Made by a program: the position numbers and the translations under genes. A stretch of 64,000 bases of DNA from Eledone cirrhosa (Eukaryota), in the NCBI GenBank assembly GCA_964016885.1, contig OZ024741.1, positions 350,238,001 through 350,302,000 of the forward strand. Reading direction: 5' to 3'. This document shows, in pieces, positions 7,815-62,361 of this stretch (position 1 is its first letter; every line of letters begins with the position of its first letter). The notes under the pieces are model-generated. The model saw only the letters and a program-made list of their open reading frames with translations. It made no database searches and was not told the DNA's origin.

Positions 7815-8190
7815 TATTATAATGAAATGACAGGAGGCTGGACTTGTGTAAATCCTTGAAAGGTTTATTGTTTATTATACTATGATCATTTCAATGACCG
7901 GGTTCCGTATGAATCCGGTGATATCATCAGGTATTCGAAATATAATAAGTGAATGCAATAGATAAAATCCATGGGGCTGAAATGCTGGATGGCGGTCGTC
8001 CTCCGGTCTTTGATTTTCAGCCCCATGGATTTTATCTATTGTATTCACTTATTATATTCACTTATTATATTTCGAATACCTGATGATATCACCGGATTCA
8101 TACGGAACCCGGCCATTGAAATGATCATAGTATAATAAACCTTTCAAGGATTTACACAAGTCCAGCCTCCTGTCATTTCATTATTATATA
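7815..8190. mobile_element. Inverted-repeat insertion of a Penelope-like pLTR fragment with an HHR in each arm
   Basis: Arms of about 170 bp (7815-7984 and 8012-8190) are near-perfect reverse complements around a short spacer; (TA)n flanks the right end. Confidence 0.8.
8076..8133 (+). ncRNA. Type I hammerhead ribozyme (mirror copy on minus at 7877-7934)
   Basis: ATAC-CTGATGA-[stem II with CCGG.TTC/GAA.CCGG]-GAAA-TGATCA-TA-GTAT. Stem I is ATAC/GTAT, stem III is the palindrome ATGATCAT, and the cleavage triplet is AUA. Confidence 0.8.
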
Positions 8191-56477: not shown

Positions 56478-57867
56478 TATATATATATAAAAATATATAT
56501 ATATATAAAAACACACGCACTAGTTGCTTTCACTCCAATCTATTATAAATTTTTAAAAAAATTCATAAATGTCCAGTTGGTTGGTTCCACAACCGGACGG
56601 TTGTTCATATATTGTCAAAGTTCTTTCGTCACACATTCTGTGACCTCATCAGTGACCGTCGATTCTTTTTCTTTGTTGTGTGCCTCTCCTTTGTTCTGTC
56701 CTACGCCATCTTGTTTTTGTGTGTGTTGTGTGCTTAGTTTGCGCATGTGTTACATCCGGGTGTCTGTGTGTGTTTTTATTTGTTTATTTATTTGTTTATT
56801 TACATGCTACTAGTCGGTTGTTTGTTCTATATGTGTGTGTTTTCATTTTGTCCTTAATTGTAAGTTGTGATGTTGCTATTCCATTCATGTTTTATATTTA
56901 ATTTTGGTTGGAGTTCATTTATGTTTATTGCCTCTGATTTGTCTAAACATTGCGTCTTTTCTGTGTAGATTTTATTTTTATTTCTATGTTCTCTAATTTG
57001 CCCTTATGTTCTATTTTAACATGTTGGTGGAGTAGAACATGACCCTCCCAAAGTATAACAATATATATATAAACATTTATAGAAATATATATATATCTAA
57101 ACAGTTATATATATATAACTATATATATATAAACATTTATAGAAATATATATATATATAAACAGTTATATATATATAACTATATATATATAAACATTTAT
57201 ATATATATATATTGTGGCTACATGTTTCCGGACGCAATTTTCACTGTGTCACACCCCTGGCGTATTGTTATTACTCTGAGCTATGATTTATCGATATCAC
57301 CTCATTGGATGCTTTCTGCCAGCCCTCAGAAGATTGATTTTGAAAAATGCTAATCGCAGCTGTAACTTCGATTTTACTCACTATTATATATATATATATA
57401 TATCAAGCGTTGTAAAATGTCTTTTGCTTTGTTATTTCTGTATATTTTTTAAATGTACACATATACGTTTATGTATATATGTGTATGTATGTGCGTGCGA
57501 AACGTGAACGAAGAAAAACTGCATTGGTGAACAATGCAGTAGAATGCTTGATATAGTAGGAGAAACCATAACACTTCGGATATTAGTCCTTCATCGGAAG
57601 ATGAATGAAAGCGAGAAGAAATAGAAAGATAGACGACAATAAGAATAAGAAGAAACGAAAACATTCTTTACAGGAAGCGTGTGTGTATGTTTGTGTGTGT
57701 GTCTGGGTCCTGCGGCTAAGCAGTTCGACGAAAAAGTGATCAATAATATAGATACCAAATTTTACAAAAAATACTGGGGTCAATAAGGTTGACTAAATCG
57801 AGGCGGTACCCCAACGTGGCCGCTGTGTAATGACAAACTAGTTGTTAAAAAAAAAAAATTATTAAGA

Positions 57868-58020
57868 ATTGTTTCTACTTTAGGCACAAGGCCACCAACT
57901 ACTTTATTTTATCGACCCTGTAAGGATGAAAGGCAAAATTAACCTCGGCGGGATTTGAACTCAGAACGTAAAGGGCCACAACTCCATGCTGCAAAGCATG
58001 ATGTCTGGCGCTCTACCGAT
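57868..58020 (-). mobile_element. Family A SINE (a diverged second copy follows to about 58200)
   Basis: Matches 8203-8390 in reverse. Confidence 0.8.
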
Positions 58021-58785: not shown

Positions 58786-58840
<55 letters not shown>

Positions 58841-59020
58841 AGTATGCATGTATACGTACATACATATATGTATACAGACGTACAGTAGCATGCACATATA
58901 TATATATATATACATATATATATACATATGCATACAGGTACACATACATATATGCACGTATCAGTTTAGCGGCGCTAACGTCGCTTTGTTCGCTTTGTTC
59001 AACTATCTGGCAGATGGGTA

Positions 59021-59065
59021 AACGGTGCTGATGATAGCTAACAAGCTTGAAACTAGTACATCGTT
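59021..59065 (+). ncRNA. Type I hammerhead ribozyme, unit 1
   Basis: AACGGTG-CTGATGA-T AGCT AACA AGCT T-GAAAC-TA-GTA-CATCGTT. Predicted cut after 59058. Confidence 0.9.
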
Positions 59066-59486
59066 CCTGTGTCAGTGTTGAACAAAAAGGTGACGTGGTT
59101 GCCTTAACACCGTATGGCATAAATTCAGGCAGTTCAGTTTGTTTACAAACGAACAAAGCGACGTTAGCGCCGCTAAACTGATACGTGCATATATGTATGT
59201 GTACCTGTATGCATATGTATATATATATGTATATATATATATATATGCGCATGCTACTGTACGTCTGTATACATATATGTATGTACGTATACATGCATAC
59301 TTACATTTAAGTAAGTGCCATACTAAGAGTGAGAAATGAAATTTCGTTTTCATTTTGTTTCAATTTATCATTTTCGGTATGCCTGACCGATTTAACTCAC
59401 TCAATATGCAAATTAGGCTGCTCAGCCGTTAATTTTCATAAGGAAAGTATATACTTTCGAACGTTCAACTATCTGGCAGATGAGTA

Positions 59487-59531
59487 AACGGTGCTGATGA
59501 TAGCTAACAAGCTTGAAACTAGTACATCGTT
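59487..59531 (+). ncRNA. Type I hammerhead ribozyme, unit 2
   Basis: Identical to unit 1. Predicted cut after 59524. Confidence 0.9.
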
Positions 59532-59950
59532 CCTGTGTCAGTGTTGAACAAAAAGGTGACGTGGTTGCCTTAACACCGTATGGCATAAATTCAGGCTGTT
59601 CAGTTTGTTTACAAACGAACAAAGCGACGTTAGCGCCGCTAAACTGATACGTGCATATATGTATGTGTACCTGTATGCATATGTATATATATATGTATAT
59701 ATATATATATGTGCATGCTACTGTACGTCTGTATACATATATGTATGTACGTATACATGCATACTTACATTTAAGTAAGTGCCATACTAAGAGTGAGAAA
59801 TGAAATTTCGTTTTCATTTTGTTTCAATTTATCGTTTTCGGTATGCCTGACCGATTTAACTCACTCAATATGCAAATTAGGCTGCTCAGCCGTTAATTTT
59901 CATAAGGAAAGTATATACTTTCGAACGTTCAACTATCTGGCAGATGGGTA

Positions 59951-59995
59951 AACGGTGCTGATGATAGCTAACAAGCTTGAAACTAGTACATCGTT
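59951..59995 (+). ncRNA. Type I hammerhead ribozyme, unit 3
   Basis: Identical to unit 1. Predicted cut after 59988. Confidence 0.9.
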
Positions 59996-60294
59996 CCTGT
60001 GTCAGTGTTGAACAAAAAGGTGACGTGGTTGCCTTAACACCGTATGGCATAAATTCAGGCTGTTCAGTTTGTTTACAAACGAACAAAGCGACGTTAGCGC
60101 CGCTAAACTGATACGTGCATATATGTATGTGTACCTGTATGCATATGTATATATATATGTATATATATATATATATATGTGCATGCTACTGTACGTCTGT
60201 ATACATATATGTATGTACGTATACATGCATACTTACATTTAAGTAAGTGCCATACTAAGAGTGAGAAATGAAATTTCGTTTTCATTTTGTTTCA

Positions 60295-60331
<37 letters not shown>

Positions 60332-60460: not shown

Positions 60461-60511
60461 AGATTCTACAGGACTAGAACTGTTTCATTCTTTAGAAATC
60501 ATCAGGAATCT
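60461..60511 (-). ncRNA. Type I hammerhead ribozyme in the inverted segment upstream of the Penelope-like ORF
   Basis: AGATTC-CTGATGA-TTTC TAAA GAAT-GAAAC-AG TTCTAGTC CT-GTA-GAATCT, with a perfect 6-bp stem I. Confidence 0.82.
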
Positions 60512-60659
60512 GGGTATCAAAAAATAAATATGGTATTTATAGGAGAGGGTAGGGGTGGGATGTGTAGAGGTCATTGGTTGATAGAAAAGGGAATTCATTA
60601 AAAGCTAATTCTTTAAAGCTATAATTTATATTTAGAGTAAAACCAAAAACATTTATGAG

Positions 60660-62361
60660 GTAGACTCACAGACCAACAATAAGCTGGCAAAAAATGCCAT
60701 CATGACCACCTACAAAAAGGTAATAGAAATCACCAAATCCCATAAATTACATGACCGAATCGAACCTTTAAGGGTAAAGACCCCCCACTTTACCCTGAAG
60801 GACCATAAGGGAAACTTCCTCAACAAACCATCAGTCAGTTTTATCAACCCCACTCGTTCAGACATCGGCTCTATCAGTAAGAAGATCCTAGATAGAGGTC
60901 TACCATCATTGCGGGTTGCCTCATCACTCCCACTCTGGAGCAGAACATCTGAGGCAATATCCTGGTTCCAAGAATTACCCGACAAACGCCACACTCGCTT
61001 CCTGCAACTCGACATAGAAAACTACTATGCTTCTATCTCGGAGCCCCTCCTGAAGGACGCAATTACCTTTGCCAGGAATTTTACCACCATTACCGATGCT
61101 GAGCAAGTTGTTATCCTCCACGCCCGTAAGACCTTTCTATACCACGATGGATCTTACTGGACCAACAAGAAGTCTCAGACTCCATATGGGAGCGAGTGAC
61201 TCGGCTGAAATTAGCGACCTTGTGGGCTTGTACATTTTACATCACCTGAAGAACCTCTTTACCGGCCTAACCGGAGGTTTATACCGAGACGACGGCCTCT
61301 TCGCCCTGCACAAGGTTAATCCCAGAACCACCGATGGGTTTCGGAGAAACTTAAGCTCGTTCTTCTCTAATCTAGGATTTAGTATAACTATAGAATCTAA
61401 TATGACTAGGGCCAACTTCTTAGATGTCAGTCTCGAGCTAGATACTTCCCTCTATTACCCGTACCACAAACCTAACGAGTCCCTTAGATATATTAATGTT
61501 AATTCTAACCACCCCCAAAACATCACTGATAACTTAGTAAAAAGCGTCTCTATTAGAATATCTGGCCTCTCTCCCAACGAAGATATTTTTAACGCCTCTG
61601 CCTCCTACTACAATGACGCCCTCGCCCGCAGCGGATTTAAAGAAAAGATAACCTTCCTAGAAACCACCGCAAGATGGCAGAGGAGGAATAGGCATAGGCA
61701 GAGAGGTCTCTACACCGATAGCTCGGATTTTCTTCACTTTGCTGAAAACACACTTCCTCATACAAAATAGGTACTACACCATCTTTAATAAGAACACAAT
61801 AAGACTCTCCTACTCCACCACACCTCACCTAGCTAGGAATATAGCCAACCACAATTCTAAAAAATTAAATAAGCCAACCACCTCCGAACCCAATCCCCGG
61901 ACTGGGGCCTTGTGTAATTGCCTAAATAAGGAAGCCTGCCTACTTAAAAACAAATGCCTGACAAATGATATCGTATACAAATGCGATGTCATCTCAGGCA
62001 CCGATGATTGCAATAACAAAAAGACTTACATCGGCATGACTTCCAATAACTTTAAGACCCGTTGGTATACCCGTTGGTATGCTTCAGAAGACCGGACAGA
62101 TCAAACCAGACAACACTCGCCTCCTATGTTTGGGACCTCAAAAGGAACTCCACCCTCTTCACGCTTATATGGAAAATACTCCAGAAGCGCTCTTACAACG
62201 GAGGACACAATGCCTTCGACTTTTGTATCTCAGAGAGCTATGAAATTTTATTCGCCAAGGGCCCGCTACTGAATAAACTCTCTGAACACTGTCCGAACTG
62301 CATGCACAAGAACTTTGCAACTTTCAAATACCTTAAGCCAATGTTAATGCCCGATGGCTAA
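60660..62361 (+). pseudogene. Penelope-like element (Naiad-type) RT + GIY-YIG ORF, 5'-truncated and frameshifted
   Basis: TLKDHKGNF...INPTRSDIGSISKKILD; FLQLDIENYYASI; MGASDSAEISDLVGLYIL; GLYRDDGL; NFLDVSL...YINVNSNHP; CNCLNKEACLLKNKCL...IVYKC...TYIGMTSNNFKTR; LASYVWDLK...CMHK. Spread over four ORFs. Confidence 0.92.

Follow-up and report, generated by a model that had tools for sequence, protein, structure and literature searches.

A young insertion of an abundant hammerhead retrozyme in Eledone cirrhosa with the end structure of Penelope-like elements

In the 64,000-nucleotide stretch of the Eledone cirrhosa genome analysed here (contig OZ024741.1, positions 350,238,001 to 350,302,000; 'the window'), we identified a tandem hammerhead array that is probably a young insertion of a non-coding retrozyme present in great numbers, produced when a borrowed reverse transcriptase (RT) of Penelope type copied a predicted RNA circle of ~465 nt. 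We are highly confident that the machinery of Penelope-like elements (PLEs) mobilised this retrozyme, and the borrowed RT is probably one of the Hydra clade.

TRF delimits the array at 58997-60300, with a period of 464, 2.8 copies and 98% matches (score 2537); the output of a general repeat search of the window was dominated by (TA)n. The units are 464-466 bp long and hold three intact type I hammerhead motifs, accompanied by one inverted arm, all within (TA)n. The hammerhead cores start at 59028, 59494 and 59958, and cuts predicted after 59058, 59524 and 59988 would release monomers of 466 and 464 nt that are 98.7% identical. The preliminary description had proposed a tandem array of this unit length, opened by an inverted piece of the unit that is joined through a stutter and a GTTC microhomology, with (TA)n at both ends; TRF, the core positions and the cut-to-cut lengths agree with the first of these claims, and the others are seen directly in the sequence, the inverted piece (58836-58998) corresponding to unit positions 87-246. 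Unit positions are numbered from the predicted cut, with monomer 2 (59525-59988) as the reference. The parts of the array, followed by its two neighbours outside it, are as follows.

58810-58835, no strand: left (TA)n target tract, read from the sequence
58836-58998, reverse strand: inverted arm, unit positions 87-246, terminating at the fixed short end
58984-59000, no strand: 5'-to-5' junction with a 9-nt stutter and a 4-nt microhomology, read from the sequence
58997-60300, forward strand: forward arm, comprising unit 403-464, two full units and unit 1-308, terminating at the fixed long end
59022-59064, forward strand: type I hammerhead 1, predicted cut after 59058 (extended stem I 58997-59083)
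59059-59524, forward strand: cut-to-cut monomer 1, 466 nt, four substitutions relative to monomer 2
59405-59454, forward strand: octamer (59405) and TATA (59447), resembling the host U6 promoter, with a predicted start at ~59478; putative function
59488-59530, forward strand: type I hammerhead 2, predicted cut after 59524
59525-59988, forward strand: cut-to-cut monomer 2, 464 nt, 36% GC
59869-59918, forward strand: second octamer and TATA, predicted start at ~59942; putative function
59952-59994, forward strand: type I hammerhead 3, predicted cut after 59988
60239-60300, forward strand: Penelope-type tail of 59-62 nt, from the short to the long end site
60301-60327, no strand: right (TA)n target tract, read from the sequence
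60461-60511, reverse strand: hammerhead of another family, in the inverted pLTR of the adjacent PLE
60636-62361, forward strand: broken RT and GIY-YIG frames of a Hydra-type PLE

The inverted arm matches unit 87-249 with 97.6% identity, and the four substitutions in monomer 1 that are absent from monomer 2 were most simply gained after insertion. Because the outer ends are embedded in (TA)n, a target-site duplication is not readable. The only stop-to-stop frames in the unit (81-199 aa) run through the TA tract; as judged from its sequence, the unit appears to be non-coding, with a GC content below 50% and without an LTR, PBS and PPT layout, as expected of a non-LTR retrozyme.

A search of the 2,996 Mb genome with the 39-nt hammerhead core returned 10,198 exact occurrences (5194 + 5004) on many contigs, against 0 for the reversed control, which shows that the motif in the array did not arise by chance. 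A sister subfamily with a 420-nt unit adds 4,601 exact cores, and the ribozyme core is conserved between the two subfamilies, which diverge widely elsewhere in the unit. For closer comparison we used, in genome order, the 51 loci to which the first 100 cores of the listing belong, together with 20 control stretches; the full units measured (n = 107) are 454-613 nt long. The proposal of a young, dispersed non-LTR retrozyme family is thereby borne out, with thousands of insertions rather than a single locus. The cephalopod host that had been proposed fits the haemocyanin of this genome, which is of molluscan type: as a single domain, one of its units scores highest on 1js8 (octopus; 855 bits), vs. 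738 bits on 4yd9_C (squid) and 488 bits on 8tnv (gastropod). On sequence grounds we class the family as a metazoan non-LTR retrozyme, previously undescribed as far as our search extends: we did not find it in the literature on hammerhead retrozymes and cephalopods, and the supplements of Cervera and de la Peña (2020) and Li et al. (2026) or Repbase may list it.

Several other arrays were encountered in the course of this work. The sister subfamily forms an array of ~18 kb (G000:C1:51775041-51793401), an array in L181 with dimer or longer higher-order repeats (422/420 alternation), and a two-armed insertion ~4.4 kb beyond the window end, beside a pLTR of the window's PLE family (L082:2400-3070). 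A second, unrelated retrozyme family with 310-bp units (L034:6234-8602) has six full units with 100% identity to one another; its two arms stand back to back in (TA)n, and its hammerhead carries the palindromic loop CGCG. Stem II of this hammerhead is similar to stem II of the window PLE ribozyme with z = 3.3, a value not above the best shuffle. The genome is rich in type I hammerhead candidates, with about a dozen families, several of them as back-to-back pairs (L031-L082; window positions 8080/7930, 11170/11006, 26223, 35619, 42433, 43033 and 56652).

The array ribozyme was expected to be a textbook type I hammerhead of the minimal kind. Its cores are intact, whereas 'textbook' overstates the fold: all 24 aligned sequences have a U.U mismatch in place of the G10.1-C11.1 pair that should form the base of stem II, and stem III is a single pair with a palindromic tetraloop. 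Nor does the minimal class apply; with a 6-bp stem I, a bulge and a 4-bp stem II, the predicted fold fits the canonical metazoan type I form, which is defined by CUGANGA, GAAA and NUH, a bulged 6-bp helix I, a 4-bp helix II and a short palindromic helix III (PMC4209133). A one-pair stem III with a palindromic tetraloop is likewise described for HHR_Amex1 and for newts, and the U.U at the base of stem II is a known variant, as in axolotl HHR_Amex2 (PMC7229834). The extended ribozyme fold has z = -3.3, and the proposed helices are paired in 95.5% of cells across 24 diverse copies, in which pairs altered on both sides (n = 2) are no more numerous than in shuffles; in stem I, a G.U of one subfamily is a U.G in the other, and covariation is based on two subfamilies. 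Rfam at E ≤ 1 gave no hammerhead among the 150 listed of 159 matches, which were only TA-repeat microRNA noise. Stem III has an energy of +5.0 kcal/mol alone and -4.8 kcal/mol as a 6-bp duplex of two copies; being unstable alone and stable as a two-copy duplex, it predicts cleavage as a dimer. Among Xenopus retrozyme dimers, according to the part of the published account consulted, one of nine was cleaved and eight remained uncut.

The evidence for PLE machinery lies in the insertion ends. Of the 97 arm 3' ends in the 51 loci, 44 fall at unit 285-312 (mostly 308; the long end) and 36 at unit 225-255 (mostly 246-249; the short end), the remainder being alignment breaks in the internal TA tract (11) or lying elsewhere (6). 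A 5'-to-5' inversion is present in 30 of the 51 loci. Each of the 24 classed two-armed insertions combines a long end with a short end (0.5^24 = 6 × 10−8), and a 25th, completed later, brings this to 25 of 25; the other five of the 30 inversions carry no class. Genome-wide, the long and short end motifs occur 2,477 and 2,482 times (controls, 0 and 2), counts from which only rough equality is readable, as the two patterns differ in stringency. The 420-nt sister subfamily ends at the homologous positions 214 and 273, contigs of independent runs show (TA)n loose ends behind unit 308, and the short end sits inside a predicted hairpin loop. The same long/short end pattern is found in three neighbouring PLE families. 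A one-sided tail, an inverted arm and (TA)n targets are hallmarks of PLEs according to Craig et al. (PMC8557442), and the in vitro work of Frangieh et al. shows a PLE making cuts on both strands of AT-rich DNA and initiating reverse transcription at two positions within the RNA, which form the borders of the tail (PMC11167929). The insertions studied here have the one-sided tail, two fixed 3' ends, an inverted 5'-truncated arm and a (TA)n target. The Penelope-like integration that had been suggested from the single array is thus supported by the two fixed ends, their strict pairing and the frequency of inversion; of the copies of variable phase that had been expected, variation was found at the inner junctions, whereas the outer ends are fixed at two sites ~60 nt apart.

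Spread of a satellite at the DNA level, by unequal crossing-over, fold-back repair or rolling-circle DNA, with the hammerhead as a relic, would account for long arrays and dimer higher-order repeats such as those of the ~18 kb array and L181, and such dimer repeats do indicate duplication of DNA at a later stage. Slippage, however, does not yield short insertions scattered in their thousands, with two fixed ends at a ratio of ~1:1 and strict long/short pairing; moreover, the end signature is common to neighbouring PLEs, and a cluster of A>G changes at one locus (L006) points to an RNA stage. We regard satellite spread as scarcely credible.

As to the enzyme, a Penelope-like RT had been noted about 360 bp downstream of the array, with a hammerhead of a different family. 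Such an RT is present, starting at 60636, 336 bp downstream, and broken over four frames, and it does have its own inverted pLTR and ribozyme. The suggested link between the array and this RT finds no support, and we rejected it: the RT's family touches only one of the 51 sampled arrays, as fragments, and Hydra-type RTs lie near 14 of the 51 arrays vs. 2 of the 20 controls, which is not significant (p = 0.20); arrays and Hydra RTs probably co-occur through common (TA)n tracts. The neighbouring RT and the candidate partner described below can both be placed in the Hydra clade by sequence features, namely a CxCX5C linker before the C-terminal GIY-YIG (window frame 61661-62272 and the 634-aa ORF of L060), a short single ORF and a (TA)n target. 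Pfam gave a weak GIY-YIG match in the window RT (E = 0.019) and no match in two Hydra-type ORFs, and protein searches returned almost no named relatives.

A better candidate than the neighbouring RT is a Hydra-type family, here family A, which has an intact 634-aa ORF in L060 and in which all 40 scored matches are identical over 301 nt (1,835 candidates). Two chimeras (L044 and L047) show a direct joint between the unit and the family A ORF, and these compound insertions have the long end from one element and the short end from the other; target-site deletion could be an alternative origin of the joints. The unit was found in none of the top 30 family A copies, and it serves as pLTR in 0 of 30 family A and 0 of 29 family B copies. 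Comparison of the unit to three PLE 3' regions showed no similarity (z ≤ 2.0), and a search for a parent pLTR among the regions of PLE A, B and C and the 310-bp family was equally negative (z ≤ 2.2). Two further elements were observed. Family B, which is abundant and of Hydra type, has a pLTR with a hammerhead-like fold (L033:3380-3480; window 12104 and 36023) that carries CAGAAGA instead of CUGANGA, U.U at stem II and a long helix III, with a tail of ~85 nt. A long open RT and GIY-YIG frame of a non-Hydra PLE type (L080:641-2524; Pfam RVT_1 and GIY-YIG) is a further candidate partner.

The same data bear on the possibility that the units are simply the pLTRs or 5'-truncated ends of an autonomous PLE whose ORF-bearing masters were not sampled. 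The tail, the inversion, the (TA)n target and the type I hammerhead are all PLE features, Xenopus retrozymes are described as related to pLTRs, and our sample covers only ~50 of thousands of loci, in genome order. Nevertheless, none of the 51 loci has an ORF leading through a 3' UTR into the unit, in agreement with the earlier impression of ORF-free units, and this makes an ordinary pLTR unlikely. What lies upstream of unit 309 in the arms is the preceding unit, 30 sister-subfamily loci (some overlapping) yielded a single RT match, which lies downstream of the array, and the PLE families examined carry pLTRs and ribozymes of their own. We therefore consider an ordinary PLE improbable and retain the reading of a non-coding retrozyme copied by a borrowed enzyme.

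What that enzyme copied is constrained by the start sites, which lie 246-308 nt past the cut, and by arms that cross the cut repeatedly, so that the template was either a circle or an uncut multimer. The 5' ends of the arms are distributed uniformly over the unit (n = 63, chi-square p = 0.23; 63 of 98 ends were usable, and 35 in the TA-rich part were dropped), with one of the 63 within 3 nt of the cut and one near the predicted transcription start (416-421). This even spread, with no pile-up at the cut, speaks against linear monomers released by cleavage as the usual template. The 5' ends had at first seemed to accumulate at the cut, an effect that vanished after the alignments were extended. 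Private variants extend through whole insertions: four A>G changes in L006 are present in all three covering copies and in both arms, a single private change occurs in all 18 units of L081/L215, and private variants run through three units of L035. Variants shared across both arms fit one circular template, without proving it, since a homogeneous source array would give the same pattern. Rare variants fixed within a locus show no strand bias (A>G 6 and T>C 6 of 21), and a reading in terms of RNA editing consequently depends on the one cluster in L006. A seemingly recurrent change, G423A, was discarded as an ascertainment effect, being found only in loci selected with a query that carries it.

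A linear, uncleaved multimer transcribed from a tandem source array and used by the same Penelope machinery, with the ribozyme slow or incidental and circles a side product, would also produce uniform 5' ends and shared variants. In vitro, insertion by the Anolis PLE uses unprocessed RNA, does not need ribozyme cleavage and is unchanged by ribozyme mutants (PMC11167929); the array ribozyme has a weak stem III and U.U at stem II, the predominance of uncut Xenopus dimers (8/9) points the same way, and higher-order repeats are present. Against this, arms of up to ~15 full units would require very long transcripts that stay uncut with intact cores, 5' ends are not concentrated where transcription is predicted to start, both arms of L006 share its A>G cluster even though this is private, and the ribozyme core has been kept between subfamilies that are otherwise widely divergent. 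On balance we judge the linear multimer rather unlikely, and the circle the probable template.

The unit also contains promoter-like motifs. In three host U6 genes, an octamer-like block is found at -76 to -79 and TATA at -31; three host U2 genes have no octamer. In the unit, the octamer is kept in 159 and the TATA in 154 of 170 copies; the octamer block had one match in 160 kb of controls, and the unit octamer matches one U6 octamer block in 12 of 12 letters. The spacing between octamer and TATA is 41 nt in the unit vs. 45-48 nt in the three U6 genes, and local alignment of the unit to the whole U6 region was not above shuffles. The two motifs are likely a U6-like promoter, with a predicted start ~46 nt upstream of the ribozyme cut. 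Four T4 runs in the unit, and T6 or longer runs in other subfamilies, could stop Pol III. Two observations on host U6 copies stand apart from this: a GGGTTA-rich stretch and a sequence related to the window PLE pLTR are fused, on their downstream side, to a 5'-truncated U6 copy (L031:1334-1438; G000:C1:2505033-2505137), perhaps a PLE-U6 chimera, and some tandem U6 genes have a SINE-like repeat inserted at their TATA box (upstream of U6 in L199 and L204), where a short duplication restores the TATA; the same repeat is present in the window at 57860-58020.

The one RNA run found, X6, is spliced RNA, as indicated by a contig across a GT-AG intron. Its contigs hold the unit, including across the cut, and strand, level and circle vs. 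tandem read-through are not separable from contigs. The unit is not prominent in this run: its summed depth relative to the DNA run is ~0.0002-0.01, vs. 0.11-0.14 for two other repeats, although contig depth does not provide a ranking of expression. Two runs from other organisms, X4 and X5, each contain one monomer contig of 470 or 486 nt with 0-1 differences (depth 7 and 10; references, window 59525-59988 and L222). These runs leave uncovered the ribosomal-protein locus of the present genome and most of the repeats commoner in it, though such gaps prove nothing, and the monomers are likely carry-over. A fuller scenario, in which the element is a self-transcribing circular RNA parasite with a stolen U6-type promoter in each unit, a hammerhead acting as a dimer and Hydra-clade two-site copying at a break, can be put forward only tentatively. 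With passage between animal species added to it, a clause that derives from the nearly identical low-depth monomers of X4 and X5, the scenario becomes very doubtful.

The life cycle that we propose would begin with the U6-like octamer and TATA driving transcription from ~46 nt before the next ribozyme cut, some transcripts running through a whole unit. Adjacent hammerheads are predicted to pair their palindromic stems III and cut, and a host ligase would close the monomer; such closure of a hammerhead monomer by host ligase has been demonstrated for axolotl and mussel. A GIY-YIG endonuclease, presumed from the footprint that the ends display, would cut both strands of a (TA)n tract, after which one DNA end would prime at unit ~308 and the other at ~246-249. 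Both cDNAs may then circle the template for variable lengths before joining 5'-to-5' at microhomologies. In some arrays, later local duplication has added higher-order repeats.

Comparison to the retrozymes of coral, mussel and axolotl described by Cervera and de la Peña (2020; PMC7229834) shows the same tandem, non-coding, AT-rich units with one type I hammerhead each and thousands of copies, with a unit here longer than their 170-400 nt. Mobilisation by PLEs was proposed there from co-occurrence, whereas here a footprint is present in the insertion ends; conversely, cleavage and circles were demonstrated there and are predicted from sequence here. The main text of that paper does not contain the words 'octopus', 'cephalopod', 'inverted' or 'microsatellite'. 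The vertebrate retrozymes of Li, Clavereau and Pollet (2026; 10.64898/2026.07.22.740005) are likewise non-autonomous tandem hammerhead repeats tied to PLEs, and our unit length falls within their range of 51-972 bp. Their 35 genomes include no mollusc among the classes listed, and their evidence is co-occurrence and pLTR homology, as opposed to the end structure described here, where a parent pLTR was not found.

With PLEs of the Hydra clade and Anolis Poseidon PAc (PMC8557442; PMC11167929), the family shares the inverted 5'-truncated arm, the one-sided tail, the (TA)n targets and internal RT starts. It differs from them in having no ORF, in whole-unit instead of partial tandems, in a tail of 59-62 nt vs. 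30-40 nt, and in ends that lie 246-308 nt past the ribozyme cut. Non-autonomous head-to-tail Chlamys elements, e.g., MRC1, provide a precedent in the sources consulted. Newt satellite 2 and the schistosome satellite (via PMC2220036) are also tandem hammerhead units with a promoter of their own; that of newt satellite 2 is a snRNA-type Pol II promoter, whereas the motifs here match host U6, the U2 genes being without the octamer.

In the published accounts consulted, the enzyme that moves animal retrozymes and the copying of circles have been proposed rather than demonstrated. The retrozyme described here records an answer in its ends, which define two start sites on a 465-nt RNA, separated by 59-62 nt; the same genome also contains a Hydra-type ORF of 634 aa that is intact and has many identical copies. 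As an in vitro PLE assay has been published, target-primed reverse transcription that proceeds from two ends on a circular template can be put to a direct test. Beyond the mechanism, these findings indicate that hammerhead retrozymes form a large, recently active fraction of an octopod genome.
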